Shown here: positions 758 to 62,100 of the stretch, piece after piece
Layout of the letters: each line of letters opens with the position of its first letter
How positions within the stretch are numbered: position 1 is the first letter of the stretch
Source of the DNA: Candidatus Binatia bacterium
GTDB lineage: Bacteria > Desulfobacterota > Binatia > UBA9968 > CAXXLF01
DNA length: 64,000 nt
Direction of reading: 5' to 3'
Assembly: GCA_963664015.2 (NCBI GenBank)
Contig: CAXXLF010000002.1
Location: 1,504,001 to 1,568,000, forward strand
Program-made: the position numbers and the translations under genes
Notes under the pieces: generated by a model
The model's database searches: none
What the model was told of the DNA's origin: nothing
The model's input: only the letters and a program-made list of their open reading frames with translations

Positions 758-936
758 ACGGGAAAGGAAAAAGGAAGAACGAAATTAGCTATCAGCTTAA
801 TGCGAGAACAAACAAAAGATACTTAACCGCAGATACACAGAGAAAGATAACTCGCGCAAAGGCACAAAGGGCGCCAGGTTTGGAGAAGATACCATAACCG
901 CAGATTTTCGCAGATTCATGAATTAGGGGTAGGCCG
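758..936 (+). repeat. Purine-rich mosaic linker (AACCGCAGAT, CGCGCAAAGG, GCTATCAGC words)
   Basis: Shares words with 5696-5707, 14604-14629, 16043-16150 and 39301-39360. Confidence 0.75.
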
Positions 937-1299
937 TTATTGTCCCGGCTCGGCTCCAGTATTTACGCCCAGGTAGGAAAGCCTGCTTTCGCCCGTGTTG
1001 CGGGGAACGACGAGAAACTGGCCGGCCTTGATGGGTAGCGGCGGGGCTCCATCCCTCAAGACCTCCCCGCTTCCCTCAAGGACATAGAGGCAGTGGGCGT
1101 TTTCCGGATGGATGTGGAGATCCGAAACCTGCCCTGGCTCAAAATTCCTGATGGTGATGTGTCGAATATCGATCCCATCTCGATAGACCCCAACGATCAT
1201 GGGCCCGTCGGGATGAAAGGACTGAAACTCTTCAGGGTTTAACACTGCGACGTCCCCTGCCTCTATCTTCACCTCTTTAGTGTTGTCTCTAGGCATCAT
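937..1299 (-). CDS. Cupin domain protein, probably with a small internal deletion
   Basis: AGGAGG RBS before the ATG at 1299. Cupin motif HIHP...YVLEGSG is present, but the second motif reads VVPR-NTG and lacks the usual His-containing segment. Confidence 0.7.
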   Translation of the reverse strand: MMPRDNTKEVKIEAGDVAVLNPEEFQSFHPDGPMIVGVYRDGIDIRHITIRNFEPGQVSDLHIHPENAHCLYVLEGSGEVLRDGAPPLPIKAGQFLVVPRNTGESRLSYLGVNTGAEPGQ

Positions 1300-1756
1300 G
1301 CTCCTCCTGCAAGCTGGAATGGTACCGAGCAAATACGGAGTATACCCTCACCGCCGCCTTCCGACCTCACTGGTTTGTTCAGACGCCATCACGGGTCGAG
1401 AGCTACGCGATCGCCACCATCCCGAAGCCACGCTTGAAGAGCGGCTTGCTGCCCTTCTCAGTTACTACTATGCACCTCCCCAGACGTCTACAATGCAATG
1501 GGGGTCGGGCATAACAACCTTATCATACTGCATTACCTGCACGGTTACGATAAAGCGGTCGCCTATGACAAACGCCGTCAAGAGGGTAAAAGCCTCCTGA
1601 GCAACATCGACTCTTGGCTACGGAAACAGGAGGGCGCAAAGGGAATAGCGCCAAGCCTAGAGAGGCATAAGGCAACAAAAACAGCTTTGAGCTCTCAGCA
1701 AGAAAATCAGAAGAACAATCCAAAAAGATGCGTAGGAACAGGGGAACAGCCCTGGA

Positions 1757-2072
1757 TTAGGCTACGTGACGGCGATTGTCTTCAAGACCGACCACTAACC
1801 TGACCCCGAGGGCGTGAGCGATCTTCTCCAGGGTTGTTAGAGAGTAGTTTGTGTAATTTGGGTTCTCCCGTCGCGCAATTCCTGAGTGAGTTTTACCCAC
1901 CTTCCGAGCAAGCTCCGATTGTGTTAGCCCTAAACTTTCCTCGCAAATTGGTGATCTGGTCAGCAAGGCATGTCCAGCTGAATTCTCTTTGAAACGCTCT
2001 CTTGAATGCCGGAGTTTTCAACTCTTTGCCGAGTCTTAAATCCAATGGCATGGCTTTTCCTTTTTTCTTCAT
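1757..2072 (-). pseudogene. HTH (XRE/HigA-like) antitoxin, frameshifted
   Basis: MKKKGK...AFKRAFQRE continues in another frame as GLTQSELARKVG...YSLTTLEKIAHALG. Lies directly after the toxin relic. Confidence 0.75.
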
Positions 2073-2073
2073 G

Positions 2074-2395
2074 TTATACTTCCCGCTGTCTGCTTCTCGC
2101 CAGGTCCAACTCCTTGCGCGGGATGGCCCGACTCTTCTTATTAAAGGCGTGTAGCAATATGATGCGGTTGCCGGGCTGGAAACAAAAGAAGACCCTATAG
2201 GACCGCACACGCAACTCGAATAGGCCACCACCCAGGCTCTTTGTATGGGGTTCCCTTAGCCTGTTCCCTCGTTATTGTAGATAATACAGCTGGGCTTTTA
2301 ATACCGCACGCCCCTCCAATGGTAAAGATTCTATAAACTTCTCAACAGGGCGGTAACCTCTAGGATCCTCGTATTGCTGTAGAACCCAGACCACA
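2074..2395 (-). pseudogene. RelE/Gp49-like type II toxin with internal stop
   Basis: Manual translation gives RPVEKFIESL...LQ*RGNRLREPHTKSLGGGLFELRV...IILLHAFNKKS. Confidence 0.75.
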
Positions 2396-2536
2396 ACCAA
2401 GTATCATATTGTTGCGATGTTATGTAAAGCCCGATAAAAAAGGGTCGGATGAAAAATGGCGTCAGTGAAGGGGGCGACGTGTAATGGGAGCCTACCATAG
2501 GATTTTGCAGATTGCAGGACATTAGGGGAGGGAGTG

Positions 2537-2580
2537 ATGGGGGTCAGGTCTATGGATTCTTGTTTTTGACCTAATCAATA
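2537..2580 (+). repeat. Left copy of ~44 bp imperfect direct repeat flanking SelO
   Basis: ATGGGGGTCAGGTCTATGGATTCTTGTTTTTGACCTAATCAATA aligns with 4259-4302. Confidence 0.85.
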
Positions 2581-8187: not shown

Positions 8188-9209
8188 ATGCCTGTGAAAT
8201 TCGGATTCTCTATCCGTGGGATAGAGCCAATAACCAGAATGGCTGAGCTCGCCCAGCGAGCCGAAGAGGCCGGGTTTGACCAGCTCTGGACAGCCGACTC
8301 ACATGCCATCTTCAAGGAGCTCTACGTCACTTTGACCGCGATGGCTCTCAGGACCCGTCGTCTGAGTATCGGGCCGATTGCCACGAGTAACCGGACACGG
8401 CATCCGACCGTAACAGCCGCAGCCATGGCTGCTCTCGATGAAGTGTCTCGAGGCCGCGCCCTCTTGGGGTTCAGCGTTGGTGGTAGCGCAAACAGGGCCA
8501 TCGGTGCAGAACCATCCAGGATCAAGGAGTGCGAAGAGTTTATTGGGCTGATCCGAAAATTCTGGCGCGGTGAGCCGGTGACAACTGCAAATCCCCCTTT
8601 TCGCTTTCCTTGCCGCCAGATTCCTCTCTACTTCACTGGTTCAGGGCCGCGCGTTCTGACCATGGCGGCAAGGGTGGCCGACGGAGTGATCATCAGTGCC
8701 ACCGCTTTTCCACTAGCTGTTCGGAAAAAGGTCGGAATGGTCCGGAAAGCAAGCCAGGAAGCGGGTAGGAGTCCTACCAGCTGAAAGTAGGTTGCGAGGT
8801 TCACTGTTGCGTTTCTGAAGATTCCCAAACGGCAAAAAACTTGGTGAAACCCCTAATCGTCCACCTGGGAGTGACTCAGCCTGAACTTTTCCAACTTGCC
8901 GGCTTTGACATTGATATGAACCAGTTCCAAAAGGCGCATTCCAGTCAGGATGATCTGATGCATTCCAGCCGGTGGGAGAATGCTATTAAGGCGTCAGACT
9001 TTGTCACAGATGAAATGGTGGAACAATTCTTTGTGGCAGGCACCGCCGCGGAATGCCTCAGTAAGGTCAAGGCCCTTGCGGCCGAAGACCTCGACCACAT
9101 CATCATACGCCCCTTTCTCTCCTCCCCAGACCCGTCACGGTTGGAATTCGACCAGTCTTACATCATAGATAGCTTCGGGCGGGAAATCATCCCACGCCTG
9201 GCGGGCTAG
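8188..9209 (+). pseudogene. LLM-class flavin-dependent oxidoreductase, frameshift near 8775
   Basis: AEEAGFDQLWTADSH, RHPTVTAAA and GPRVL..AARVADG motifs. Continues in another frame (LKVGCEVHCCV...FGREIIPRL). Confidence 0.8.
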
Positions 9210-10158: not shown

Positions 10159-10259
10159 CAACCATGCAAAGTAGTGGCTCAAGGATGCTCTTAAATCTTA
10201 TGAACTGCCGGGATTAAGTTTATTGTTGGTATTAACTTCACCCAAATAACTATCAGTCA

Positions 10260-10440
10260 ATCGCAAGAGAAAGACAGTAAGCAGCAAGCAGGGGGCAGCA
10301 AAGCAGAAACTACAGACTAACGACAACTCCAAGGCAAAGCGCATAGAGCAGAGCGAAAATAGGTGTCAGCGATCAACTAATAGTAAAGGATTAATAAGAA
10401 TAAACCACGGAAGAGCAGTCAGGAGAGAATTTAAGGAGAA
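10260..10440 (+). repeat. Purine-rich mosaic linker
   Basis: GCAAAGCGCATAGAGCAGAGC, ACTACAGACTA and TCAGCGATCA words. Confidence 0.7.
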
Positions 10441-14573: not shown

Positions 14574-14603
14574 AATGTATGAAAGGCCGACCGTTAAGAG
14601 TTT

Positions 14604-14629
14604 TTAACCGCAGATTTACGCCGATTATC
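14604..14629 (+). repeat. 26 bp word, identical copy at 16125-16150
   Basis: TTAACCGCAGATTTACGCCGATTATC on both sides of SBP 14815-15948. Confidence 0.9.
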
Positions 14630-14814
14630 ACGGATAAGGATTCGGATATTTCATCGCAGAGACACACGAATAGACAGGGACAGGAAAAATGGACAAGACA
14701 AAAGGCAATGAGCGCGCCAGAATCCTAGCCACGGAGCAAAGTTAAGCAGCCACCTTTACCGTTGACTTGACCTCAAAAAAGCGGTAAACAGCCAACCTCG
14801 ATAGGAGGGAAGCA

Positions 14815-15948: not shown

Positions 15949-16053
15949 GCGACGGGACAGGAAAGGTTAGCTGTCAGCCGTCCGCCACACAAGCCAGAGA
16001 ACAGAGGTCAGAAGTCGGAGGTTAGACCACAGAGACAAAATGCTCGCGCAAAG

Positions 16054-16092
16054 AGCCTACTCCGCCGGAGCAGCGTCGGCTGCGAAGGCCGG
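16054..16092. mobile_element. 39 bp palindromic mini-insertion (REP/MITE-like)
   Basis: Absent from the homologous linker at 851-916. Imperfect hairpin GCCT..GCCG..CGGC..AGGC. Confidence 0.65.
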
Positions 16093-16299
16093 GCACAAAG
16101 GGCGCCAAGCTCGGAAAAGATAAGTTAACCGCAGATTTACGCCGATTATCGCAAACAAAGGCCAGGCCATTCAAAGCGGAAACACAACAAATAGATAGAG
16201 ACAGAGACAGTGCGTGAGAAGAGAAAGACAGTAGACAGGAGCGGAGGGCAGAGCGCAAAGCCTAGTTAGCGATCAGCTTCCAGCGAGCAGCAAGATCTC

Positions 16300-16342
16300 A
16301 AACGGGCGCCTCATGCTCTATTCACACGAGGCGCCCGTTTTT
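16300..16342. terminator. Intrinsic terminator hairpin between convergent SBP genes
   Basis: AAACGGGCGCCTC ... GAGGCGCCCGTTT followed by T residues. Confidence 0.8.
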
Positions 16343-16351
16343 ATAGGTCGC

Positions 16352-17485: not shown

Positions 17486-17732
17486 TGCTTCCCTCCTATC
17501 GAGGTTGGCTGTTTACCGCTTTTTTGAGGTCAAGTCAAGGTCGCGAATAGGGGGTTAAGTCTACGTTTGATTGGGCCCATCCTCTTCTCTATCTTTTGCT
17601 CCCTCCACTTCTTCCCTTCGAAGCTGTTGAGCTTCACTTGACGGCTATGCTAAAAGATATCGAAGTACAATCTAGCGCGCACCAAGCAATGGTGTTGATG
17701 ACGCGCTCAGACCATATGGAGGGAACCCAATT

Positions 17733-18341
17733 ATGAAACTTTATTATAAGGCAGGTGCATGTTCCCTGGCCTCGCATATCGCGCTCCGCGAGTCAGGACT
17801 GAGCTTCGAGCGCGAGGCCGTCGATACAAAAAGCAAAAAGACCGATAAGGACCGTGACTACCTTGCGATCAATCCAAAAGGTTACGTGCCGGCGTTGGGA
17901 CTCGACAACGGCGAAGTGCTCACCGAAGGTCCAGCCATTCTGCAGTATATCGGCGACCAAATACCCGAATCCGGGCTCGTACCGGCGGCGGGCACATGGG
18001 AGCGCTACCGTGTCCAAGAATGGCTCAATTTCGTCACTTCGGAGATCCACAAGGGTTTCAGCCCACTGTTGCGGCCGACAACGCCGGATGAATATAAGGC
18101 GATTGCAAAGGAGACACTCATCAAGCGCCTGGGCTACATTGCGCAGCACCTAGAGGGCAAGACCTACCTCGTCGGCGACAACTTCACGGTAGCCGATGCC
18201 TATCTTTTTACGATTCTAAACTGGCGCACACGTATCGGCCTGACTTTAGACCGTTGGCCGGTGCTGGAGCAGTATCAAGCCCGTTTGGCCGAGCGACCGT
18301 CCGTTCAGGCGGCGATGAAGGCAGAAGAATTGATAGCTTAG
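17733..18341 (+). CDS. gstA: Glutathione S-transferase, beta class
   Basis: GACSLASHI, INPKGYVPAL, TEGPAILQY and FTVADAYLF motifs. Confidence 0.92.
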   Translation: MKLYYKAGACSLASHIALRESGLSFEREAVDTKSKKTDKDRDYLAINPKGYVPALGLDNGEVLTEGPAILQYIGDQIPESGLVPAAGTWERYRVQEWLNFVTSEIHKGFSPLLRPTTPDEYKAIAKETLIKRLGYIAQHLEGKTYLVGDNFTVADAYLFTILNWRTRIGLTLDRWPVLEQYQARLAERPSVQAAMKAEELIA

Positions 18342-18408
18342 TTTGTCAGTGCGATTTGATTTATACCGTGGGCTCCGGGTCGGACGGCAAAAATAGCAAA
18401 TTTGACAC

Positions 18409-18445
18409 CGGTCCAGCACCATTCTCATTCCCAGGTGCTGGACCG
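18409..18445. terminator. Hairpin between convergent genes
   Basis: CGGTCCAGCACC ... GGTGCTGGACCG. Confidence 0.6.
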
Positions 18446-23439: not shown

Positions 23440-23731
23440 ATCCCCGTCGCCGCTCCTTCCGCACCCCTGACATTTGATATAATATAGGGTCTAAATGCAG
23501 ATAATCTCAAAACCTGACGAAACCTATCAATAGGATATGAGGCCTGTCCATACAGGGACAACGGACTACGGAGAGACAGAGACAGAGTAAGAGAGGGAAA
23601 AGACAGTATGCAGTAGGCAGCAAGTCAGTACTGAGTGAGGAGTGCTGAGGAGAGTTAGCACTCAGCGAGCAGCAATATCTCACTCCAGCGACTCGTGACC
23701 TATTCGCTTGATGCCCTCACCTGTTGGTCAC

Positions 23732-28481: not shown

Positions 28482-28521
28482 CCCCCAATTGACAACCCAT
28501 CCCATCGGACATAAGATGCCC
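28482..28521 (+). promoter_or_regulatory. Recurring promoter module, copy A
   Basis: CCCCAA-TTGACA-17-TAAGAT-GCC. Confidence 0.7.
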
Positions 28522-28960
28522 CCGATAAAGGGATAGGGGTATTGAACAGTCGAGTAAGTACCCCAGTAGAAATCAAGCACCGGGACGAGACAATAGACTG
28601 GCGGTGCCTGGATAATTGCCGCGAAGGAATGTACATGTTAGGCTTATTCCGTACTGGAGGCCGTGTTAGCATGAGAGCAGAATCAAAGTAAAAAAACAAC
28701 TTCTGCCTAGGGTCAGACGACAGCAATCTTGCATGGGTTAGAGGGTAAGGCGTAGTTAGTTATAAGCCGTCGGCTATCAGTTTTCAGCGAATTTCTAGGG
28801 CCAGCGGACAGACAGAGATAGGGACAAGAAAGAGCGAAGGGCATAGGGCAAAGCATTCAGATAAGATCTCGGACTTCTGACAACAGGACTACGAGGAAGA
28901 AAACAGCAAAAACAGCTCCCGACGTCCTTGTAGACTTTCACCATTCTCCCCCACTTCCCT

Positions 28961-29010
28961 CCCGTAATTGACAAGCCACCTCACCGGGCATATGATGCCT
29001 GCCGATCAAG
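28961..29010 (+). promoter_or_regulatory. Recurring promoter module, copy B
   Basis: TAA-TTGACA-17-TATGAT-GCCTGCCGATCA. Confidence 0.75.
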
Positions 29011-31537: not shown

Positions 31538-31762
31538 CAAACTTGAGCCCCTTAGTTTGAACCCTTGGACCCCGAGACCCAAGACCTTAGTGTCTATCTG
31601 TGTGAGGCCTCTCCCGAAGCCAACCACGGTATTTTATTATCATGTGGTCAGGGGCAGGTCTATGGATTTCAGCAGCAAGTCAATGACTACGGGCTACTGA
31701 CGACAGGACTACAAAGATAAGCCCATAGCGATTCGAGAACAGATATGAATGAGAACTTCAGC

Positions 31763-33399: not shown

Positions 33400-33620
33400 G
33401 AGGGGCAAATCGATTAGATGGGACTATTAACTACGGGACTACGGGGAAAAGAGGAACAGTAGGCAGTAAGGAGAAAGCTATCAGCCAAAGAAGAGAAAAA
33501 GCCAGGGAGCATTAGGCAGCAAATCAAGGACTACGGACTGCCTGACCACAAACTCACAAAGCAAAGGGCAGAGCGCATAGCGATAAGGACACCGGACCAA
33601 GACTACTGACTAACCTAAAT
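33400..33620 (+). repeat. Purine-rich mosaic linker
   Basis: GGACTACGG, AGTAGGCAG, GCTATCAGCC and GCAGAGCGCATAG words. Confidence 0.75.
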
Positions 33621-33764
33621 TTCGAACAGCCTGAAAAGAAGGCAGGTTTAGGCTCCAGAATAACCATTTTCATAACAAAAACACGAGGCTAAGAAGGCAG
33701 ATCGGTGCGTTGACGGCAATAGGGCAAAATGTTAGCGTGGCCCTTCTTTTGGGAGGTGTCCGCG

Positions 33765-34814: not shown

Positions 34815-34974
34815 ACGATGTGTTTCGAAGATAGCTCCTTAACGGGGGAATCGTGGTAATGAACGTTCGATTAGTCTACGGACGGGGTAGGTCAGACATC
34901 AGGAACCGCCGGTCATCGACCACCGGGAATCCCCGTCGCAACGCTTGGCAAGAGCTGAGCGGATAGGAGGAACG

Positions 34975-36180: not shown

Positions 36181-36304
36181 GCAGGCCCTAGCTTCAGCAG
36201 ACGGGCGTATTTTACATGTGCGAGAGCTCGATGCTCCACTGGGATCTCTTCTGTACGGCTTAAAAGCTGAGAGAAGACGGTAGAAACGACCCGGAGGAAC
36301 GCCC

Positions 36305-36627
36305 ATGCTGTTGGCACGGCCGCTTGCATCCATACTGCCCACCGAGTTAAAAACGCCAGGCGCTCCATTGTTCGTGATGGCGGCGATCTTGTTGACGGTC
36401 GGTATGTATCTGACCGTGCCGGTCCTCCTGCTGCCTCCCGTGGCACGATGGCACTCTCATTGCTTGCTCTGGAATTTGCTTCCCCAGCCATCAGCCAGTA
36501 CGAAGAGGCGAGTATCATTAGCCTGCTCATCATGGCCCTCACGGTGGGGTTGGCAGTGTTCGCCCGCGCGTTTGGTTTGCGTATGTCTGTTCAGCATCAG
36601 CAACTGGTCAACACGGTGAACCGATAG
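36305..36627 (+). pseudogene. FbpB-like ABC permease reduced to its two termini
   Basis: N-terminal FVMAAILLTVG and C-terminal RGTMALSLLALEFA...ARAFGLR match the two ends of 41142-42881. Confidence 0.8.
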
Positions 36628-36820
36628 GCAAAGGGCATGGGGCAAAGTGCGGAGGAAGTAGGCAGCAAGTCACGGACTACAGACTACGGACAACAGGGCC
36701 GCAAGACCAGGAGGCGAATCACTAAGGAAATAGTACAAAGCGTTAAGATGGGACAACTGACTATTGACGACAGGACTACGGACAGGCAGACACAGAGATA
36801 GGAATAGAGCAAGGAAAATC
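36628..36820 (+). repeat. Purine-rich mosaic linker
   Basis: CAAAGCGTTAAGATGGGACAAC (36736-36757) is identical to 42920-42941. AGTAGGCAGCAAGTCA is identical to 23612-23627. Confidence 0.8.
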
Positions 36821-36873
36821 CGGCACCGTAACAGGTGCATTCGAATGAAGAGAAATGCCGGAGGAACCATTCC

Positions 36874-38086: not shown

Positions 38087-38363
38087 GGGAACAGTTTCAA
38101 TCTGCTTTTGCCTGTTTAGAGCCTCTTCAACCCGACCCGCGCGCAAAGTGTGGGAGACAGGAGCTTGCGAGCCAGTGCTGAGTAACGAGCGCTGAGTACT
38201 GAAGGCCAGAGATCGTAGCCTGAGGCTGATCAGCCTTCGGCTGAAGCCGTCAGCTTTCAGCGAAGATGAAAGCAAAGCGGCAACAGCCAAACCAGCAGGG
38301 ATCAGGCACCGGGACAAGGCAACAGGTTGTCGGATTTTTTTCGTTTCTCGTAAGGATTCTCTT

Positions 38364-39248: not shown

Positions 39249-39558
39249 GCTACAAGTCTACAGGACGGCAGAGAAGAAAAGTGCAGAGCGTTAAGAGAAC
39301 TTAGCCGCAGATTTACGCAGACTAAACCCCGGCCGTTCACCACAGAGACGCAGAGGCCGCAGAGAATTCACTTTTTGTTTGTCGGGAGATGACGACAAAC
39401 AAGGGATACTTAATCGCGGACGATCAATCATTCGCGGCAACGGGCATAGAGCAAAGCGTTAAGAAAGTACGATTAACGACATTACTGCAAGACCACCAGT
39501 CGCAGGTTGGTTATTGCCTTTAGTAAAGAAGCCCTATTCTTTCCTCGGGTTGCTCTTG

Positions 39559-40773: not shown

Positions 40774-41004
40774 TCCTCATGGATATTTTCTTGTTCGGAT
40801 AGCAGTCTCTCTTCCTGCCTCCATGCTGAAACTCAGATACGAAAGCGCGGCATATCAGGTTTGCCACAGCAACCGCCTCGTCTCCAAAATAATAATAGAA
40901 TACGATCGTTGCACGCAGCGTCCTTCCCTGTCCGGCTATTCCTGGCAAGGATATACCGCGGAGCGCCCATGTCAAGTCCCTGGGACGCCCGTGCTACACC
41001 GGGT

Positions 41005-41032
41005 TGACCAGAGCTACAGGGGTGCTAGAATC
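41005..41032 (+). promoter_or_regulatory. Sigma70-type promoter for permease; divergent -35 (TGTCAA) nearby
   Basis: TTGACC-16-TAGAAT with TGn extension. Confidence 0.55.
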
Positions 41033-41141
41033 GTGGCGTTTGATGAAGGGATCGATTGAGAGTTGAGATTGGCCCCCTTAATAGGGTCCGGATGTAGGGA
41101 CAAAGCGCAGCCGAACACATACCGGGCCGAGTCCATTACCC

Positions 41142-42881
41142 ATGCTAACCCGAACTCAGGAACAACATCTTCCGGTTGTCCACGTGCCGGCAATCGGCAC
41201 GTTTGTCATGGCGGTGATCCTCCTCACCTTGGGCTTCTATTTTTTGTATCCTATCTTTCTGATTGGATTAAACAGCTTCAACACGACCAATAGTCTTCTG
41301 GCAACTCCTGCCTATGGGCTGGATAACTGGCGCAGCGCATTCAGCCAGCCCGACCTATTTAAAGCGGTCGGCAACACCTTTCTCATCTTCGGCATTCAAC
41401 TGGCTATCGGTTTTCCCATAGCTGTCGTTATTGCATGGTCGCTTGCGCGAGTGCGTATGCCCTTCACCTATGGTCTGGAGTTCCTCTTCTGGGTGGCGTA
41501 CCTCGTTCCAACTATATCCATTACTATCGGTTGGATGCTCCTCATGGATCCAGTCCTTGGGTTCCTCAACCGGACCGTCACCTGGCTTCCTTTCTTTGAC
41601 AGCGGACCTTTCAACATCTTCAGCGTCCCGGGCATCATCTGGGTCCACATTGTGGGGAGCACTATTCCCTCAGGCGTGATCCTGCTCACCCCCGCCTTTA
41701 GAAACATGGACGCGGCATTAGAAGAAGCGGCTCGCGTCTCCGGCTCATCGAGCCTTCGGACGATGCTACGAGTTACGCTACCGGTTATGATTCCGCCCAT
41801 GGTGGCAGTTTTTACGTTGCGGCTGGTGCGAATGTTCGAGTCCTTTGAGACGGAGCAGCTACTCGGTGTCCCATTCGGCTTTTTCGTCTATGCAACCAAA
41901 ATCTTCGAGCTGGCTCGTGACACTCCACCCCAATTCGGCTCGGCGACGGCACTCGGCAGCATTACGCTGCTCCTGGTGGCACTCATCATCCCCATCCAGC
42001 GATGGCTCCTTACCAGAAGGCGCTATACCACCGTTACTGGGAGTTTTAAGCCCGGGCGAATCGACCTGGGCCCCTGGAGGTGGGTGATCTTCGGCTCAAT
42101 TATCATCGTATTGGTGCTGCTCATTGTCGCGCCGGTTCTCAGCCTGCTCCTCGGAAGCTTCATGCGTCGAGCGGGGATTTTCATCCTGAAGCCAACCTAC
42201 ACCTTGCACCACTGGCAATTCGTCCTGACCGACCCGGTATTCTTGAACTCACTCAAGAATACGTTGTGGCTCGCCACAACGGCGGCCGTATTCAGCCCAT
42301 TGTTGTTTTCCATGCTTGCTTACATCATCGTACGGACAAAGTGGATTGGCCGCGAGGTGCTTGACAGCCTGATCTGGATCTCAGGGGTTATCCCAGGCAT
42401 GCTCGCTGGGCTCGGCCTGCTGTGGATGTTCGTGGGAACGGCGTTCCTCCGCCCCCTGTACGGAACGCTGCTCCCCTTGATCATCGTTGTTATCATTCAG
42501 GGCAACACGACTGGTGTGCAGATCTCGAAGGCCTTCTTTTACCAGATGGGTGCAGACCTGGAAGAACAGGCCAGGGTATCCGGTGCAGGATGGTGGGCTA
42601 CCTATTTCAAAATCTGGCTCCGCCTGATGATGCCGACCCTGGTATTGTTGGCAGTAATGAACTTCATGTTTGCTGCGACGACCACAAGCAGTATCATCCT
42701 GCTGGCACCACGGGGCACTATGACGCTGTCGATCCTGGCCCTGGAGTTTGCAGCCCCGGGAGTCGGCTTACGTGAATCGGCAGGAATTGTGAGCCTGATT
42801 TCCCTGTTCATGGCGGTAGGCATGGCGCTGGTAGCAAGAGCCTTCGGACTGCGATTTGGCATCCGTGAGAGGAAATACTGA
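41142..42881 (+). CDS. FbpB-like ABC transporter permease (two TM domains)
   Basis: Two EAA loops (LEEAARVSG, LEEQARVSG) and many TM segments. Confidence 0.92.
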   Translation: MLTRTQEQHLPVVHVPAIGTFVMAVILLTLGFYFLYPIFLIGLNSFNTTNSLLATPAYGLDNWRSAFSQPDLFKAVGNTFLIFGIQLAIGFPIAVVIAWSLARVRMPFTYGLEFLFWVAYLVPTISITIGWMLLMDPVLGFLNRTVTWLPFFDSGPFNIFSVPGIIWVHIVGSTIPSGVILLTPAFRNMDAALEEAARVSGSSSLRTMLRVTLPVMIPPMVAVFTLRLVRMFESFETEQLLGVPFGFFVYATKIFELARDTPPQFGSATALGSITLLLVALIIPIQRWLLTRRRYTTVTGSFKPGRIDLGPWRWVIFGSIIIVLVLLIVAPVLSLLLGSFMRRAGIFILKPTYTLHHWQFVLTDPVFLNSLKNTLWLATTAAVFSPLLFSMLAYIIVRTKWIGREVLDSLIWISGVIPGMLAGLGLLWMFVGTAFLRPLYGTLLPLIIVVIIQGNTTGVQISKAFFYQMGADLEEQARVSGAGWWATYFKIWLRLMMPTLVLLAVMNFMFAATTTSSIILLAPRGTMTLSILALEFAAPGVGLRESAGIVSLISLFMAVGMALVARAFGLRFGIRERKY

Positions 42882-43258
42882 GATCCCCACGGATAAAGCA
42901 AAGCGCAAAGAGCAGAGCGCAAAGCGTTAAGATGGGACAACGGACGACTGACTACGGGACGAGGGGGGAAAGAGGGACAGTCGGCAGTGAACAGATGGCA
43001 GGATGATGGCTATCAGTAGTCAGTTTTCAGCGATCAGTAAAGAAATAGTACGAAGCTAGGGAGGAGCACAGGGACAAGGTAAATCGCCGCCGGAGCTCTT
43101 TTTTTATATTTTAAAAGAAAGGTATTTGTTTTATGGCTAGCCCGGACTCTGCATGAATGGGGCGTTGGGACAGCCAACCTGTGGTTGGCCGGGGCACGTC
43201 GCGTCTGCGGCGTGCCCATTTTTATGTTAGCATAGAATTCGAATGGTTTGGTCACACG

Positions 43259-43798
43259 TCATTTTGGAAACGTAAGCGCGATACCAAGAGATATTGGTTT
43301 ATCGCCGATGCTCAAAACCGTTCTTGCGTCTGACAACTCCCAGGACGAGAGCTTTTCTTTCGAATATCCTTTTGTTGTGGCGGTATCCGACGAGCCAGCC
43401 TTGGTCAATTTGATGACGTAATTTTCATTGCTTCCGTCGCTCAGAGTTACCGAGAGAGCCATTTGCTTGCCTTCTTCTGTCGCCACTGTTTGCAGTGAGG
43501 CAATTTGAGTCCAGGCTGTTGTCCTGTTCACGGTATCGAAGTACATCCACAAGTGTGACCCAATAAATGCGAAAAGCAGCAACCAAGCATACTGACCAAC
43601 CCTCTGCTGTTTTTTCATATACCGAAATTTATGTAGGTCGAAAACTTTGCGGTACGTTTTTCTATCGGCTTCCAATTTCTTAGCAGGACTTTCCTCCACC
43701 GAACTCACCGGTTCTTCAATTTTAGATCCGAGACTGTTCAGTATCATCCCCACGATTATCAACACCAATGGGATACCGATCACTAGAAATGGATTCAT
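43259..43798 (-). CDS. Hypothetical membrane protein
   Basis: AAGGAG RBS, two hydrophobic segments and lower GC content. Confidence 0.7.
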   Translation of the reverse strand: MNPFLVIGIPLVLIIVGMILNSLGSKIEEPVSSVEESPAKKLEADRKTYRKVFDLHKFRYMKKQQRVGQYAWLLLFAFIGSHLWMYFDTVNRTTAWTQIASLQTVATEEGKQMALSVTLSDGSNENYVIKLTKAGSSDTATTKGYSKEKLSSWELSDARTVLSIGDKPISLGIALTFPK

Positions 43799-44110
43799 TA
43801 TGCTCTCCTTGTTAGGGGCTCTGGAAGGCCCTTGGATTTAGGAAGAGGGAGGGGGTCAGGATCTAGGATCCAAACATCCGTGGGGGGAACCAAAGCCAAA
43901 GGTCTTGCAATCGTTGAACTTATGGCCTGGCCTTCTGCCTCTTACGCGCCGTTAGGACGAAGAAATTATGTCAAAGAAACTCTATAGGACTGGACTCACC
44001 TTAGCAAGGGGGATATTGCGGAGGACATAAGGGGTCAGGCCGGGAAATCTTGACCATCTTTACGAGTTCATTGAAAGCTTCCCTAGCTATATTATCACCC
44101 AGAGATTGGC

Positions 44111-46654: not shown

Positions 46655-46904
46655 CAGAGCATTAAGATTGGACAACCGACCACGGCCGACAGGGCTACGA
46701 GGCCAAAGAATGACAGTCAGCAGCAGGCAGAGGGCAGCAAGTAGAAGAGAGCTATCAGCCATCAGCCAGATAGGAAAGACAGGGAGCAGTATGCAATGGA
46801 CAACAGGATAAAGCACCGGGACGAGGCAACACGCCGCCGGTACATTTTGGATTTCTTAGCAGTAAAAAGAGAACCGGTTGATCGCAAGACCTAACTCGGC
46901 ATAC

Positions 46905-46960
46905 ACCCCAATTGACAAGCTCATCATTCTGGGTCTAGAATACCTGCCGATCAGAGAGGG
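46905..46960 (+). promoter_or_regulatory. Recurring promoter module, copy C
   Basis: CCCCAA-TTGACA-18-TAGAAT-ACCTGCCGATCA. Confidence 0.7.
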
Positions 46961-47134
46961 CAACAGTTTACAGCGTGCAGAAGGCAATGGGCAGGAATTC
47001 CGTGACGATGGACAACCGACTACTGACTTCTAGGCCAAAGAAAGAGAGTAGGCAGCAAGAAAGCTATCAGCCAAATTAGAATGACGATTACCAAACGCAG
47101 GACACAGGACAAAACAGGAATCAGGAGGTAGAGC

Positions 47135-48437: not shown

Positions 48438-48475
48438 CACCCCAATTGACAATCTCGCCCCGGCGGGCATAAGAT
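48438..48475 (+). promoter_or_regulatory. Recurring promoter module, copy D
   Basis: CCCCAA-TTGACA-18-TAAGAT. Confidence 0.7.
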
Positions 48476-48672
48476 AACTGTTCACTCTCAGGCGCAAGGG
48501 AAAGAATCGAAACTGCATTTCGTGTTCGTGGGCGTGAATCATGGACATGGCAAAGGTAAAGATATCAATGCGCGAGAAACAGTGTAACTCCGGCTCCTAC
48601 CTCGGTATCGAGCGAGTTTCAACCAGAGTAATAAAAGACCTTCATCCCACTTAGAAAAGGTAACTATCGACG

Positions 48673-50925
48673 ATGTGGCATACCATCGGCCGGGCGCTTC
48701 CCAGAGTGGAAGGAGCCTCAAAAGTAGAAGGGACGTGTGTTTACACGGCGGATGTTATAAGGCCATCCGCGCTTTGGGGCAAATTTCTCCGGAGCCCCCT
48801 CCCCCACGCGCGAATCCTGAGTATCGATGTGAGCCAGGCCCTTCGCCTTCCGGGAGTAAAGGCGATTGTCACCGGAAAGGATATTTCACCGCGACTGGAA
48901 GGATATACACTACAGGACAAACCTGTATTTGCCTTGGACCGAGTACGCTACATTGGGGAGAAGGTCGCGGGAGTTGCGGCTATTGATAAAGACATTGCGG
49001 AAGAGGCCCTCACGCTTATTGACGTGAATTACGAAGAACTGCCGACGGTCTTCGACCCTGTGGAGGCGTTGAAGCCCGAGGCCCCGCTGCTTCACCCCAA
49101 ATATGCGTCGTATCTTGGTCCTCCCAACATGGCACCCCAATTGAGAAATGTTCAGACTGTTATCTCCACGTCAAAGGGAGACATCGCGGCGGGGTTCGCT
49201 GCGTCCGACAGGATTTTTGAAAATACTTTTAGAACTCATATGGTGCACCAGGGTTTTATCGAACCTCGAGCCTGTGTCGTGGAAATAGATAAAGACGGAC
49301 GAATCATGGTTTGGTTCGGGCATCAATCGAGTTTCAAAGTGCGCAGTTGGCTGGCCACCCACATCGGCATCGCCGAGGAAAGGATCGTTGTTCATCCGGT
49401 AAATCTGGGAGGTTCCTTCGGAGGGAAAGAGGGATATGAAGATGCTCTGTGCACCTATTATTTGGCCAAGGCCTCGGGCCGGCCGGTAAAGGTCGTCTCC
49501 ACCTATACGGAGGAGCTGATCGACGGCGAGCCGCGCCACGCTGCCGTAATTACTCTGAGGACAGGGATAAAAAACGATGGGCGGCTGTGGGCCTGGGACG
49601 GGAAAATCCATTACGACGGGGGCGCCTACGCAGCGCGCAAGCCCAGCCCCAGAGCCAACATGAACGGGACCTTCATGCTCGCCGGATCCTACTCCATCCC
49701 CCATACAAAGATGGAGGGGTACGCGGTGTATACCAATCGGATTCCCTGCGGGTACTTCCGTGCACCCGGCGAGGTGCAGACCTTGTTCGCGGTCGAATCC
49801 CATATGGACATGATAGCGGAAACTATGGGGATCGATCCTTTAGAGTTCCGCCTGCGTAACGCCCTCAAGGGAGGCGATACCAGGAGCACGGGAGAATCCA
49901 TCTCTGACCCCCGGGCTCAGGAAACGTTGCAGCAGGTTGCCAAGTCATCGCACTGGAATGGACACGTTCGTGGCAAAACAAATGGACAAAAGCTGGCAGG
50001 CCGTGGATGGGCCTTTGGTGATCGTCATGTAGGGCACGGAGAGTCCAGCAGCGAATTGTTTTTAGAGAAGGACGGAACTCTCTGCTTGACGACGTCCGTC
50101 AGGGACCAGGGCGTCGGCGCTTACACCATGCATCGTCAGGTTGCTGCCGAGGTTCTTGGAATCAATCCGAATCTGATTCGGGTCGAAATCAAGGGTACCG
50201 ACACGGGCCCCTATGACGAAGGAGTGAGAGGGGCAAGGGGAACCCATGTCGAAGGCCAAGCGGTTTTCCGGGCCGCCCAAGCCCTCATCAAGAGACTTTG
50301 CGAAGAGAGCGCCTCCCTGTGGAAAGTGAGGCCTGAGAAGGTGGAGTGGAAGGACGGAAAGGCTGGGTTATCGAAAGGGAAGTCTCGGAAAACCATGGGC
50401 TTGAAAGGAATCGCCCGGAACTGCGACGTACCCATCTGCGGTTTCGGCCACTTCAAGGCTGAGACAAAGCCGGACGTTTATTCCTTCCAGGCTATCGTAG
50501 CTGATGTGGAAGTGGACAGTGAGACGGGAGAGATTGATGTGCAAAAACTCTACTTCGCCTATGATGTAACCCAAGTCATCAATCCAATCATTCACCAGGG
50601 CCAGATCGAAGGAGCGATTATCCAGGGTTTGGGATTTACCGTAATGGAAGAGATGGCCGTGGACGAGGGGCGGATCCTGACTTTGAATCTGGGTGACTAC
50701 AAGATCCCCACGATCAAGGATATCCCTCGCCTAGCAACGACACTGGTCCAGGCCGATCAGGGGCCTGGTCCCTTTGGGACAAAGGCTGTGGCGGAAGCGG
50801 GAATCAGCATCATCGCACCGGCCATTGCCAATGCCGTATACGACGCCACAGGGGTACGGATTTTCGAGACGCCGATTACGCCTGAGAAGATTCTCACTGG
50901 ATTAGCATCCCGTGCCATATCTTAA
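48673..50925 (+). CDS. Xanthine dehydrogenase family molybdopterin-binding subunit
   Basis: RSPLPHARI, GGSFGGK, GYFRAPG, GQIEG.I.QG.G and KAVAE motifs. Confidence 0.92.
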   Translation: MWHTIGRALPRVEGASKVEGTCVYTADVIRPSALWGKFLRSPLPHARILSIDVSQALRLPGVKAIVTGKDISPRLEGYTLQDKPVFALDRVRYIGEKVAGVAAIDKDIAEEALTLIDVNYEELPTVFDPVEALKPEAPLLHPKYASYLGPPNMAPQLRNVQTVISTSKGDIAAGFAASDRIFENTFRTHMVHQGFIEPRACVVEIDKDGRIMVWFGHQSSFKVRSWLATHIGIAEERIVVHPVNLGGSFGGKEGYEDALCTYYLAKASGRPVKVVSTYTEELIDGEPRHAAVITLRTGIKNDGRLWAWDGKIHYDGGAYAARKPSPRANMNGTFMLAGSYSIPHTKMEGYAVYTNRIPCGYFRAPGEVQTLFAVESHMDMIAETMGIDPLEFRLRNALKGGDTRSTGESISDPRAQETLQQVAKSSHWNGHVRGKTNGQKLAGRGWAFGDRHVGHGESSSELFLEKDGTLCLTTSVRDQGVGAYTMHRQVAAEVLGINPNLIRVEIKGTDTGPYDEGVRGARGTHVEGQAVFRAAQALIKRLCEESASLWKVRPEKVEWKDGKAGLSKGKSRKTMGLKGIARNCDVPICGFGHFKAETKPDVYSFQAIVADVEVDSETGEIDVQKLYFAYDVTQVINPIIHQGQIEGAIIQGLGFTVMEEMAVDEGRILTLNLGDYKIPTIKDIPRLATTLVQADQGPGPFGTKAVAEAGISIIAPAIANAVYDATGVRIFETPITPEKILTGLASRAIS

Positions 50926-51012
50926 CGGAACCCACGGGCAAATCTTTTTTGACAGTTCGCCTCAACTATAGATTTTTATTCAAAACTCCCGCCCTTCCCT
51001 GACTACCATCAA

Positions 51013-51051
51013 CCCAATTGACAAAGCTCCCCCACCAGGCATAGAATGCCC
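51013..51051 (+). promoter_or_regulatory. Recurring promoter module, copy E
   Basis: CCCAA-TTGACA-18-TAGAAT-GCC. Confidence 0.75.
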
Positions 51052-57217: not shown

Positions 57218-57531
57218 AACCATTGGGGTGGCCGGGTCCCGTTGGCGCAGAAGCTAGGAAGTGGACAGCCACTAGGGACCACAGCCTACAGGACTACTGA
57301 CAACCGTGGGAAGAGGGACTGAACATAAAAGGTTACGTGTGAAGCGAAGAAGAAGGCGTCAAATCGTTTTTTGACAAAGTGCTTCGCACACCTATCTGGA
57401 GTCCAAACTACACCTCTTCGACTTGACTGCGTGGCTGCCAAGACCGATACGCCAACGGATCGAACGACAGGGAAGACCTAGCATAGGAATGCATGTGCCA
57501 ATAGGAGTAGGATAGGTCGCGGGGGAACACT

Positions 57532-59037: not shown

Positions 59038-59366
59038 GCGTCAGCGGCCGGGTCTATGACAATGCAAGTAAAAAGGGCTTGGGAAAAGAGCTGCCGAAAG
59101 AGATGTTTTTGCAGGACATTCCCACATAAACTTGAGCACTGGGGTCGGTCATACCTTTTTCCGAACGAGAACGGGTTTGCTAATTTGGAGTAGGCGTAAC
59201 ATTCGGACTGACGTCTAGTAGCCTGAATTTACATGACCTGACAGATAGAAAACCGGCTCGACCGTTCTCCTATCTATTAGCTAAACATCGAAGTACGAAT
59301 ACCCAGTAACCGTTGACAGAGCGTAATGCAGAGGCAAGACAATCTCCCCAAACACTCGGAAGTTAG

Positions 59367-59717
59367 ATGTTCGAGATCTTGATAGCAGTAGGCATCTTTA
59401 CGGTGCTCGTCTTGGTTGCCGCCGGCGATCAGCTCTTGCATGGGCACGGGCTTTTAATCATCGGTACCGTCACGGCAGCTTTGGGACTTATCGTTGGTGT
59501 TTCTGTAGGGATCCGCTATCACCTAGCTCTTTACCGCACCCTTGAGCCCTTAGGAATACTGGAGCCTCGCTGGTGGTGACAACCCACGAGCTATAACGCT
59601 CATCTCCCCTCCGCAAACAGCCGCACGGTGATGACGTGGTTTTACGCAGGAGTGGCTAGCATGGTTGTGGTGTTGGTCGGTTGCGCTTTGATTCTCGCCG
59701 GCACCTTGATAATGTGA
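59367..59717 (+). pseudogene. Small membrane protein with in-frame TGA at 59577
   Basis: The hydrophobic frame continues past the stop (QPTSYNAHL...WFYAGVASMVVVLVGCALIL). Confidence 0.6.
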
Positions 59718-59874
59718 AACGTTCGAGCATGGCGCAAAGCGATAAGAGGGGGGGCAACAGGGAAGCTATCAGATCGTTACGACTGGTTGTCAGTTCTGAC
59801 TTCGATCCTCAGGGGATCAATGGACTTAAGGTCGCGGTGCAGGGGGTGTAGTTGTAGCGCAGGGTCGACAGTCT

Positions 59875-60322
59875 TCACGCTTTTTTCTTCATTTTGTTTG
59901 TTCCAGCGGAATAGACGAGGGACAGGTAGGAAGGTTTTTTGGTTTGGGAATCCCCATGGGGATTCAGGAGCCTTTCAATACGATCAATCAGCTGTTCGTA
60001 TGTAAACGGCTTGGCGAGAAAGTCGTTCGAGCCGCTTTGCCGGACTTTCTCTTTATCCTTGAAGGAAACCCTTGCAGTCACGGTCAGCATGGGGATGGAA
60101 ATAGTGCCCGGGTTATGACGAATCAAACGGGTGGCTTGAAGGCCGTCCATTTCGGGCATCAAGATGTCCATCAGAATAAGGTCCGGCTGATGGATTGCGG
60201 CCATATCCACTGCTTCCCTACCGTTCACCGCTACAATGGTTTCATAGGAAGCCTTAAGAATCTCCCGTAATATCATGAGGATATCCGGATTGTTCTCCAA
60301 TATAAAGGATTGTCTTCGCCAT
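59875..60322 (-). pseudogene. Single-domain response regulator, frameshift just after the start
   Basis: PDLILMDILMPEMDG and FLAKPF motifs; the ATG at 60322 (MAKTIL) is out of frame. Confidence 0.75.
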
Positions 60323-60684
60323 GGTCCTGCTTTTTTAGTGCAAAAGAGGTGCCAAGATTCAACAGTTGGAGACCGAATTCTTCCTAATTGACGAACGGGC
60401 ACAAAGCATTTTTATATCGCCCAGGGTGGTACGAACATCGTCGGTTTGTTTGTGGAGCGTTTTAAATAGACAGCTGGCAGGGAGCGGCAATCCGGACTAC
60501 AGGACAACTGACAGAAGTAAAACAGCAGGCAGTAGCTAGGGAGAGACTCCGTGCCGGATACTGAGGACTGATCACTGAATACTGACGACCGAATAGTTAC
60601 GAGCCCGGAGCTGCCATCTGCCCAGTGCCCACTCCTCACGGTGCTCTGCTCTATGCGTTTTGCTTTCTGGTCTTGTGGTCCCGC

Positions 60685-61469
60685 CTATCGGACGGGGACG
60701 AGTATGATTTCTATGCGTCTATTTTGGCTTCGTGTTTCCTCTGAATTGTTTGGGGCGATGGGTCGGTAATAACTGACCCCACTAGCGGTCATTTTTTCCG
60801 GCTGGATATTCCCTTTTTCCTGCAACAAACGCACCACAGCTGCTGATCTGGCAGTGGATAGCTCCCAGTTGGCCAGGAACCTTTCCGTCAATGAATACCG
60901 GATATCAAGATTATCCGTATGTCCTTCCACCACAATAGTCCTACTGGTATCCTCTTCAAAAGATTGCGCCAAGGTCAAAAGGACTTCCTGCCCCTGTCCT
61001 TAATCTTCGTGCTTCCCGAGTCGAATAGAATCTTATCCACAAACGTTACCCTTAGCTTGCCTTCTATCTCTTCGATTTTGACGTCCTTTTCGGCAATCTA
61101 GTCTTTTAGACTGCGCCCTATTTCTCTACGGGTTCGATCCAATTCGGATATCTTCATTTCTTTTTGCTGAACAACGGGTTGGGTTTGCGCCAAGGCAAGT
61201 TTCAACTCACCTATGGCATCCTCTTGTTGCCGGATAGCAGATTGCGCCTGGCTCAGGTTGCGCTTCAAACCTTCTATGGTGCCCGAGAGGCGTGCGTTTT
61301 CACTTTGGAGTTCATTGTGGCGTGTCTGGAGGTCCGATAGGGAATCGTTCTTTTCTTTCAACTGTGAGTTGGAATTCGTTTCCAGGTCCGTATACGTCCC
61401 TTTCGTTACGCACGATGAAAGGAAAAGACAAATGAGACACGAGGTATAAAACAACGATTTATGGAACAT
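60685..61469 (-). pseudogene. OmpA/MotB family lipoprotein with stop and frameshift
   Basis: Lipobox LSSC, coiled coil, TAG at 61098, then VEGHTDN, NWELSTARS and NRRIEI motifs. Confidence 0.85.
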
Positions 61470-61669
61470 AGCTCTTTTCTCTTTAGAGAGCGAATTAAGA
61501 ATAGAACCTTGATTTTAAATTTCAGTCGCCAGGAACTGGAAAGTTTCGAAAACGGTCATCGATCGGTCGGGATTCGAACGGGCAAGTGGTTCATTTCGCC
61601 CTAGATTGGACCTGCGTATAGCTTACGCTTCGAAGATGTAGCATTTTAATTCGGGAAGAAGTCCCAATG

Positions 61670-62100
61670 CACAAGGGGACAGAGCGCCGTAGGCAGTAGG
61701 CCGCCAGTCAATAACAACGGATTACTAACGATAGGACTACGGACAGACAGAGATAGGGACAGAACTAGAAAAGATAAAGCCAACAGGATGGGGGCGACAG
61801 TAGAAGAGAGCCAGCAGAGGTCAACCTTTAGCTAAACAGCGTTGAGTGTTAAGTGGCGCCGTAAGAAGCGAGAGAGCGAGCCAACAACACTGCTTTCGGT
61901 CGGTTTGATTTTGTTGTGCGCCGTTTGTTATAGGATGGAGGCGGCTCGGGAAGGCTAAGCGTAGAGGCGAGAACGTAGTGAGGCAGCAGGCGGATGGTAG
62001 CAGGATTAGTGTTAAGTGTTGAGGGAAGAGAAAGCTGTCAGTCAACGGTCCGGAGATGAAGGCTGTGAGCTGAAAGCCGATAGCTAGTTGACTGATGACA
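61670..62100 (+). repeat. Purine-rich mosaic linker
   Basis: CGGACAGACAGAGATAGGGACA (61740-61761) is identical to 28805-28826. Also GTAGGCAGTAGG and GGACTACGG words. Confidence 0.75.

Follow-up and report, generated by a model that had tools for sequence, protein, structure and literature searches.

Intergenic linkers of single-armed form and one strand polarity in a 73-kb zone of a Candidatus Binatia genome, and their possible origin from a mobile hairpin repeat

Why should unrelated genes that point in both directions be separated by linkers that are built from the same short words and carry these words on the same strand? The question is raised by the stretch of 64,000 nucleotides analyzed here (G000:C2:1,504,001-1,568,000; hereafter the window), which belongs to the genome of a Candidatus Binatia bacterium (G000; 3.51 Mb in two contigs, 53.5% G+C, 97% completeness). 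An earlier note, made from the sequence alone, had described the window as a polarised array of single genes and mosaic linkers, integron-like in effect. The one-strand polarity of the linkers is real, and it recurs in a related genome (G004). As an explanation, we tentatively favor, while stopping short of calling it probable, that the linkers are one-armed derivatives of a mobile hairpin repeat, which increased in number and recombined as direct copies within a flexible gene island, the genes being reshuffled by the same recombination.

The shared vocabulary of the linkers was evident in exact matches as well as in composition. All five of the exact matches between linkers listed in the earlier note were recovered, in position and in length, and its description of the + strand as A/G-rich and T-poor held in 16/16 example places, with T at 9-19% and purines at 54-71% in the first 150 nt; the places at 5640 (57% purine) and 31670 (54% purine) were the weak ones. 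The values for all intergenic DNA of the window were 22.4% T and 53.4% purines. Amongst the 47 intergenic stretches of at least 80 nt, A exceeded T in 35, and the AT skew reached 0.35 or more in seven and was negative in 12. Because only part of these stretches is A-skewed, about 19 linkers are affected, and not every one.

Counting of the words by orientation bore out the proposed strand bias. The seven words named in the earlier note occur 41 times forward and four times reversed in intergenic DNA (binomial p = 9e-9), compared with 15:12 inside genes, and a set of eleven curated degenerate words gave 45:1 in intergenic DNA. The polarity is independent of gene direction, as had been claimed: the curated words stand at 13:0 between two + genes, 15:0 between a + and a - gene, 11:1 between a - and a + gene and 6:0 between two - genes. 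Taken by clusters of words, 18 of 19 were net forward (p = 8e-5). The curated words were partly picked from the + strand of the window, and the guards against circularity are the result from G004, given below, and an unbiased repeat search. In the latter, 15 of the 20 largest direct-repeat families (D3-5, D7-14 and D16-19) link linker to linker, and just one (I10) of the 25 longest inverted pairs connects two linkers, its second arm (60643-60666) being the sole reversed site.

Vocabularies drawn from the data themselves (10- and 12-mers that recur elsewhere in the genome, with orientation assigned by purine content) were tried and set aside. Chance words and coding paralogues dominated the first two; with the third, 111:34 matches and 20:6 loci were obtained in the window, yet several other 64-kb windows scored alike. 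Since purine content mis-orients the near-neutral core word introduced below, reliance was placed on the unbiased search and on G004 instead. A tandem repeat finder located period-7 runs of 2.7-4.1 copies at 763, 36675, 42898 and 46750, and these heptamer runs make up only part of each linker. The window did not match a CRISPR array: the spacing between copies of a repeat family ranges from 93 to 38,177 nt, the copies are 60-100% alike and protein-coding genes stand between them.

A genome-wide count of word orientation showed that the polarity holds in a zone of about 73 kb (G000:C2:1,497,908-1,570,875) and not across the genome, where the words are about equally common on both strands. Intergenic curated words numbered 25 forward and 31 reverse at 1.568-1.77 Mb of contig C2, 26:23 at 1.77-2.25 Mb, 27:33 at 0.2-1.40 Mb and 22:20 on contig C1. 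With the words near-balanced outside the zone, the polarity belongs to the zone and not to the words themselves. All 11 in-zone clusters with at least two words are all-forward; of the 22 clusters in the flanking DNA (1.38-1.72 Mb), 15 are mixed, six all-reverse and one all-forward, and the forward words precede the reverse ones in 14 of the 15 mixed clusters.

This order reappears in the form that the words take outside the zone, namely imperfect palindromes in which a purine-rich 5' arm is followed by a pyrimidine-rich 3' arm, giving hairpins of 100-500 nt. Around the core word W (TTAACCGCAGATTTACGC and variants), four of four paired elements folded as W/W' hairpins, with minimum free energies of -40 to -60 kcal/mol and z-scores of -1.5 to -7.1, whereas window linkers of equal length (6/6) gave z-scores of -1.7 to +1.1 and folded no better than their shuffles or nearly so. 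The suggestion that one half of an inverted pair is stacked in these linkers is therefore upheld, in that the window linkers hold single, non-folding arms and the paired arms elsewhere fold. The linkers and associated modules are as follows (positions within the window; D and I, families of the unbiased repeat search; fold z, z-score of folding; F, forward word).

758..936, + strand: one-armed linker between a + gene and a - gene, with a heptamer run, a AGCTATCAGC word and a CCGCAGAT core; AT skew 0.44, word cluster FFF (all forward), fold z +0.08.
10250..10400, + strand: one-armed linker with words of the CAGTAAGCAG, ACTACAGAC and GCAAAGCGCATAG types; AT skew 0.36, families D3, D5 and D8, fold z +0.03.
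14574..14814, + strand: linker that starts at the Tex stop codon, with W at 14604; family D12; homology to G004 stops there.
15949..16345, + strand: one-armed linker between convergent solute-binding-protein paralogues, with W at 16125; AT skew 0.42, families D11, D12, D16 and D19; at its end (about 16296-16340, + strand) a GC-rich hairpin, then a T run (by eye).
23540..23660, + strand: one-armed linker between two - genes; cluster FFFF, families D11, D14 and D17.
28489-28517 and 28968-28996, + strand: two copies of a promoter-like module (TTGACA-N17-TAAGAT and TTGACA-N17-TATGAT, respectively); family D13.
28770..28900, + strand: one-armed linker between these two promoter-module copies; families D3, D4 and D17.
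31650..31745, + strand: short one-armed linker between two - genes; family D7.
33400..33620, + strand: one-armed linker with 7 forward words; fold z +1.08.
36620..36800, + strand: one-armed linker with heptamer runs (GACTACA, 3.1 copies); AT skew 0.54, fold z +0.12.
39249..39470, + strand: linker with the W core, a CGCAGAG run and the hairpin TTTTTGTTTGTCGGGAGATGACGACAAACAA.
42885..43060, + strand: one-armed linker downstream of a + gene, with 4.1 copies of GCAAAGC; fold z -1.67.
43192-43217, + strand: strong terminator-like site beyond the preceding linker.
46655..47134, + strand: linker that begins at the methyltransferase stop codon, with purine-rich words, a D9 module (46808-46841), a promoter module (46912-46941) and further words as far as the next start codon.
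48438 and 51010 (48438..51024), + strand: further copies of the promoter module CACCCCAATTGACAA ahead of + genes; family D13.
57260..57310, + strand: short patch of GGACTAC-type words.
60480..60684: both arms are present only here in the window, as purine-form words (60480-60535) and pyrimidine-form words (60620-60684); inverted pair I10.
61690..61830, + strand: one-armed linker with an exact 22-mer in common with 28805; families D7 and D17.

The same polarity was found in G004, where 1.30-1.47 Mb of contig C7 is syntenic with the window in reverse orientation; its genes are 70-93% identical to those of the window at the DNA level, and the linkers do not align. Along 200 kb of G004, W (up to three mismatches) occurs 25 times on the - strand (1,333,647-1,467,252), followed by 19 occurrences on the + strand (1,470,832-1,497,986), and this holds in every gene context. 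The curated words stand at 1:51 in the syntenic block and at 72:3 in the adjoining block; relative to the genes, the former has the same polarity as the window and the latter the opposite one. The switch is sharp, within about 3.6 kb, and a group II intron reverse transcriptase/maturase (L089:8878-10230) and an IS3 transposase (L089:3961-4779) are encoded at it (locus L089, C7 at about 1.464-1.470 Mb). The forward block beyond the switch is dense with small genes (ParE, Fic and, by eye only, a HicAB-like pair) and with tandem units of W followed by CGCAGAG. A further relative, G002, offered no syntenic comparison, since the Tex query had no match there at E <= 1e-50.

Comparison with G004 also supported the claim of gene turnover. 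Nearly every gene forms its own homology block, and the order of the blocks is shuffled. Homology ends within 0-20 nt of stop codons, where the linkers begin; for Tex and the methyltransferase it ends a few bases from the stop codon, at the start of the linker in G000. The methyltransferase and SelO genes are neighbours in G004 and 42 kb apart in G000, the gene at 39559-40773 is inverted in place, several multi-kb segments are found in just one of the two genomes, and one or two of about 45 junctions are conserved. The proposal that gene units are gained or lost at the words themselves fared less well. The one clean empty site (18341-18419, 79 nt) holds no words, and G004 carries 2.7 kb there, between a GST gene and its neighbour. 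Additionally, no conserved junction core was seen, the five junctions after stop codons sharing no motif by eye. At a shorter distance, a strain of about 97% identity (run X7) keeps the linker at 46655-47127, and its linker at 33371-33728 differs only by a 47-nt deletion (33467-33515), which indicates that linkers are inherited and not remade at each event.

With up to two mismatches allowed, W was matched 45 times in the source genome and 52, 169, 3 and 0 times in its family relatives G002, G004, G001 and G003, respectively; it is thus frequent in two of these relatives and near-absent in the two others, and the 26 genomes of other families of the order have 0-1 matches each. In the species collection, at least 113 stretches, spread over many phyla, contain the exact W 18-mer, compared with about 17 expected by chance by our own arithmetic. 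Amongst the matches listed were records from Pyrinomonadaceae (Acidobacteriota), Bacteroidota, Verrucomicrobiota, Planctomycetota, Chloroflexota, the cyanobacterial genus Nostoc and others. Two complete Pyrinomonadaceae chromosomes hold 55 and 29 near-matches to W versus 1-3 for a reversed control, and several of the Pyrinomonadaceae matches are inverted pairs 60-100 nt apart. A literature search of open-access full text, supplements excluded, found no description of these words or repeats.

A hairpin of 14 bp with the loop GGGAGACGA was observed at 39370-39405 of the window and at about 30 other places of the source genome, usually after the W core and a CGCAGAG run. Its stem exists in two versions, GTTTGTCG/CGACAAAC and GCCCAATCG/CGATTGGGC, so that both sides of the stem change together, and it had no match in Rfam.

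Small genes that accompany such repeats elsewhere were also considered. The earlier note had mentioned that repeats of this kind often flank four-helix-bundle and GxxExxY genes as inverted pairs, and had seen no such gene in the window. The absence was confirmed amongst the window open reading frames (ORFs) scanned, which had no match to PF05635 or PF13366. The link to four-helix-bundle genes held in this genome. The source genome has no PF13366 genes and three PF05635 (23S_rRNA_IVP) genes, all on contig C1, and by eye each of the three lies between purine-rich and pyrimidine-rich runs of low-complexity words. The repeats resemble intervening-sequence-type elements with PF05635 in this respect, and differ from them in the window, where no gene of this type occurs and the second arm is all but absent. 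A reversed W-like word stands 91 nt downstream of one PF05635 gene in G002. PF05635 genes number 2-3 per genome (G000, G002 and G004) versus 45-169 copies of the W core.

Outside the relatives, 126 of the 191 W-adjacent ORFs in 57 loci were scanned. PF13366 (GxxExxY) was found at two loci, PIN, PemK, ParE, BrnT, Fic and YhcG as single or double cases, and PF05635 at none; the majority of the scanned ORFs were ordinary genes or without a family. The link to GxxExxY genes made in the earlier note is supported by the two PF13366 cases, which lie within 700 nt of the exact 18-mer in Pyrinomonadaceae records (L174:6155-6586 and L183:5903-6307). Genes of the 23S_rRNA_IVP type are known to lie within operons, between the other genes; PMC3936711 places them between cas genes, which is consistent with such genes being inserted elements.

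These observations can be accommodated if single arms derive from mobile hairpin elements that flank small selfish genes elsewhere, similar word runs being found beside the 23S_rRNA_IVP genes of the source genome and beside GxxExxY genes, of nuclease/toxin type, in other phyla. The arms would have increased in number and become mixed locally as direct copies recombined with one another in ordinary ways, through unequal crossing-over, through gene conversion and through deletion or duplication, and the same recombination would shuffle, duplicate and delete the gene units in between. A direct array of this kind would be self-reinforcing, because duplication copies orientation. The linkers would then be substrates and by-products of homologous or illegitimate recombination and not sites of a dedicated recombinase. 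Both the derivation of single arms from paired ones and the double role of recombination in spreading the arms and shuffling the genes are our inferences.

Several points weigh against this explanation. No event was caught in the act, nearly every junction between G000 and G004 being broken. Genes point in both directions, and inverted paralogues lie between same-strand linkers (solute-binding-protein genes at 14815 and 16352), so that simple tandem duplication of gene-plus-linker units is not the whole story. The loss of the pyrimidine arm, and not of the purine arm, over 73 kb in G000 or more than 165 kb in G004 is left unexplained, and purging of opposite-oriented copies is an assumption. 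Amongst the words, signs of mobility came from the W core alone; a second vocabulary 18-mer, GTAAGACAGTAGGCAGTA, had 7 matches across the species collection versus about 17 expected by chance.

Seven copies of the promoter-like module (CCCCAATTGACAA ... TAnnAT) were counted, each on the + strand and within the zone, and such modules stand ahead of several genes, in agreement with the claim that units have their own promoters. Together, the paralogues and the repeated promoter module suggest growth by duplication. Near this module, a 34-nt module (GCACCGGGACRAGGCAACA...CCGGT) is present in four direct copies (28572, 38301, 46808 and 51128), which may be an operator or leader common to a catabolic-gene regulon. 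The convergent solute-binding-protein paralogues have 377 aa each and about 80% DNA identity, and their 57-nt upstream regions (14758-14814 and 17486-17541) are 98% identical. This is an inverted duplication, and the linker between them nonetheless carries forward words throughout.

An alternative that we consider unlikely is that the purine-rich strand is selected as a polar functional signal in RNA or DNA. For example, Rho might load in one direction on the complementary pyrimidine-rich transcript, with its C over G; the 5' and 3' untranslated regions of + genes of the island could gain stability from purine RNA poor in U; or the linkers could carry phased protein-binding sites (CGNNGAT about every 10-11 nt). 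At least two linkers have a + gene on one side and, on the other, a + strand site that resembles a terminator (43192-43217 and, by eye, about 16296-16340), and words at 46990-47134 lie between a promoter module and a start codon, so that, to judge from these signals, some linkers are probably transcribed. Contigs of the one RNA run, X13, cover parts of the genes at 39499-40794 and 43790-43939 and are uninformative on linker expression or strand. The - strand of the linkers has a C/G ratio of about 1.1-2.0 with 9-19% A, Rho is encoded in the genome, and the polarity is kept in two genera despite turnover of linker sequence, all of which would suit a signal. However, the polarity is independent of the neighboring genes in both genomes, the forward block of G004 having 16 ORFs on the - strand versus 12 on the +, and the words form unpolarised pairs elsewhere in both genomes. 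A candidate reader of GGA-rich RNA, CsrA, was not found in the source genome at its 97% completeness, and the idea that such RNA acts as a CsrA decoy was dropped.

Growth in situ, that is, expansion of heptamer-type tandem repeats by slippage under strand-biased mutation or repair and without mobility, appears rather unlikely to us. An in-situ slippage origin has been proposed for cyanobacterial heptamer repeats. The period-7 runs, the 47-nt indel inside a linker of the related strain and a second 18-mer that is no commoner across genomes than chance would all fit with it. Slippage is harder to reconcile with the sequence that distant linkers have in common (22-26 nt in exact matches, 40-70 nt in families), with a W core well above chance in many phyla and with the existence of paired hairpin forms, and it does not account for the switch within about 3.6 kb in G004.

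The resemblance to the cyanobacterial repeats deserves a comment. The short tandemly repeated repetitive (STRR) heptamers and small dispersed repeats of cyanobacteria were reportedly described by Mazel and colleagues in 1990 and by Elhai and colleagues in 2008. STRR sequences are alike in being intergenic heptamer runs with embedded small modules and no known function; they differ in phylum and in words, and are not known to have paired purine and pyrimidine arms or a strand-polar zone conserved between genera. Repetitive extragenic palindromic (REP) sequences and bacterial interspersed mosaic elements (BIMEs), with their REP-associated tyrosine transposases (RAYTs), also offer a close likeness, with intergenic mosaics of few short motifs in tens to hundreds of copies and hairpin-capable palindromic units that are often transcribed with neighboring genes. 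Here, however, no Y1/RAYT was found above the cut-off, the vocabulary is larger and partly heptameric, the units of the zone are single arms in one orientation instead of alternating ones, and one core word extends across phyla. The paired forms elsewhere in the genome are both palindromic and mosaic, and the copies in the window are mosaic but one-armed. Miniature inverted-repeat transposable elements (MITEs) are likewise short, non-coding, multi-copy and, when paired, palindromic; no matching transposase was found, and the copies are mosaics and not derived from one master sequence. Terminal inverted repeats with target-site duplications were not noticed by eye, no systematic search for them having been made.

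Another possibility, which we hold to be improbable, is that the linkers are strand-polar landing pads of a new gene-shuffling platform, built from a vocabulary common to several phyla. Single gene units of either direction, each with its own promoter, would be inserted, excised or flipped at the pads by an unrecognised enzyme or by recombination or repair machinery of the host that acts on the words. If this were true, polarity would be an intrinsic need of the mechanism and hence conserved between genera despite the turnover of the linkers. To call the linkers scars of a site-specific mechanism goes beyond what the data require, though it is compatible with them. Evidence of a dedicated recombination enzyme was not obtained. 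The 61 ORFs of the window include no integrase by Pfam, as had been claimed, and no transposase, Y1/HUH enzyme or reverse transcriptase is encoded in the window. The genome as a whole has no reverse transcriptase and no Y1 transposase above the cut-off; the one PF01797 match lies below it (22.4 bits), in an ORF with a weak NCBIfam match to the C-terminal part of DnaA. Tyrosine recombinases (PF00589) gave 12 matches in the genome, 10 of them over the cut-off, the nearest at C2:1,256,861, about 247 kb from the window.

That distance also bears on a true integron-like platform, in which a recombinase encoded elsewhere would insert and excise units at the linkers in fixed orientation, and which we regard as quite improbable. 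The look of the array fits: as in integrons and superintegrons, unrelated genes are split by uniformly oriented repeats, units turn over gene by gene, and small genes of toxin-antitoxin type (ParE, Fic and, by eye, HicAB-like) occur in the densest block of G004 as they do in chromosomal integron arrays. Homology ends at stop codons, and several units have a promoter module of their own. The reading fails, however, on the three integron features tested. No IntI-type integrase lies in or near the array. Unlike attC sites, the linkers are one-armed, neither palindromic nor folding in any of the six cases above, with no core site seen and with an empty site free of words. Finally, integron cassettes are mostly promoterless and co-oriented, whereas the window genes lie on both strands and several are preceded by repeated promoter modules. 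The polarity, the gene turnover and the lack of an integrase in the window are therefore the parts of the integron-like description that stand, and a junction core and a common gene direction are the parts that do not.

Replication-coupled insertion seems similarly remote to us. Arms would be inserted into one template strand, as single-stranded DNA or by reverse transcription, and their orientation would record fork direction. In support, W lies on the - strand along the uniformly negative GC skew of G004 C7, including 7/7 of the matches listed outside the dense zone (0.74-1.85 Mb), and the group II intron reverse transcriptase and IS3 transposase at the switch would mark a possible inversion breakpoint. 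The replication context of the source genome gave a different picture. Its one group of five clustered DnaA boxes is located immediately upstream of dnaN (C2:1,770,115-1,770,481), where the genic GC skew flips, and the rRNA and S10 operons lie to the left on the - strand. The window is therefore located in the left replichore, 202-266 kb from this origin; its purine form is on the + strand, and its own genic skew is near zero. On G004 C7, the skew is negative over 0.4-1.94 Mb and unchanged at the polarity switch, and the purine form is on the - strand, a relation to skew opposite to that in G000. On G004 C6, the skew flips at dnaA-dnaN (0.88 Mb) without a matching flip of the words, which count 52:34 to the left and 47:47 to the right. 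Outside its zone G000 shows no replichore bias, and as stated above it has no reverse transcriptase and no Y1 transposase above the cut-off. Altogether, no consistent relation between orientation and replichore was found in G000, G004 C6 or G004 C7, and the polarity consistently tracks neither fork direction, save if the zone of G000 was recently inverted, nor the neighboring genes.

During this analysis it was observed that dnaA (C1:111,756) in the source genome is far from dnaN (C2, to 1,771,587) and from the only DnaA-box cluster, the skew and the gene direction both flipping at dnaN and not at dnaA. G002 is arranged likewise (dnaA at 18.5 kb, dnaN at 1.817 Mb), and G004 has adjacent dnaA and dnaN on C6 and a second dnaA on C7.

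An assembly artefact, with contigs misjoined at repeats, is a virtually negligible explanation, since contigs from a run of another study span the linkers at 28740, 31670, 33400, 36630, 42890 and 46660 with 0 differences and the local order is preserved in the covered parts of related strains from two seawater metagenomes, even if short-read unitigs end at the W/hairpin repeat around 39340-39400. The contigs of independent runs are interrupted in the same linker (39249-39470), as expected at a repeat. Contig joints that skip 1-12 kb (e.g., 38253 to 39359 and 30333 to 42919) were examined as cassette deletions and rejected, because their sides measure 20-41 nt and lie in repeated modules or paralogous permeases.

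The genes between the linkers are mostly concerned with transport and catabolism and include many paralogues (Pfam labels, 61 ORFs): five Amidohydro_2 proteins, several solute-binding proteins, a Rieske protein, LigB, short-chain dehydrogenases and FAD oxidoreductases. Tex, RNase D and SelO are also encoded, the best matches of Tex being Nitrospira records at 75-80% identity. Split or truncated genes comprise a luciferase-like monooxygenase (8188-9209), LigXa (36764-38086) and remnants of an ABC permease (35027-36619) with an internal loss of about 1.45 kb relative to G004, which suggests relaxed selection in the island. The window has no tRNA genes and no Rfam 15 match at the gathering score; at E <= 0.5, its sole match was a chance-level snoRNA inside a gene region. 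Parts of the window are present in seawater metagenome runs.

Other repeats of the source genome were noted in passing. A second family shows a strand asymmetry of 3-5:1 genome-wide, its 11-mers GAAGCCTCCAC, GCGAAGGCGGA, CTTCGGCGGAA and CCCTGTTCGGC each having 24-32 copies on one strand and 5-11 on the other. Microsatellites of the (CA)n, (GA)n and (GGGA)n types supply thousands of 11-mers in the genome. When 80-nt windows with a purine or pyrimidine content of 85% or more were joined into segments, 33 of the 34 segments fell in G000:C2:1-200,000, where GC skew is near zero, a picture uncommon in bacteria. Purine windows of this kind had been tried as a signature of the linkers and were rejected, as their near confinement to 0-200 kb of C2 marks a different phenomenon.

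Interspersed repeats are frequent in intergenic DNA, and most have no established function or mechanism. In the genome analyzed here, one repeat family is present in two states, as paired arms that fold and as single arms that do not, and the single-arm state is limited to a gene island of fast turnover, with a strict polarity that recurs in another genus. The spread of the core 18-mer across phyla points to a widespread element. The finding thereby provides a handle on how such repeats spread, and on whether they drive the reshuffling of accessory genes or merely mark it.

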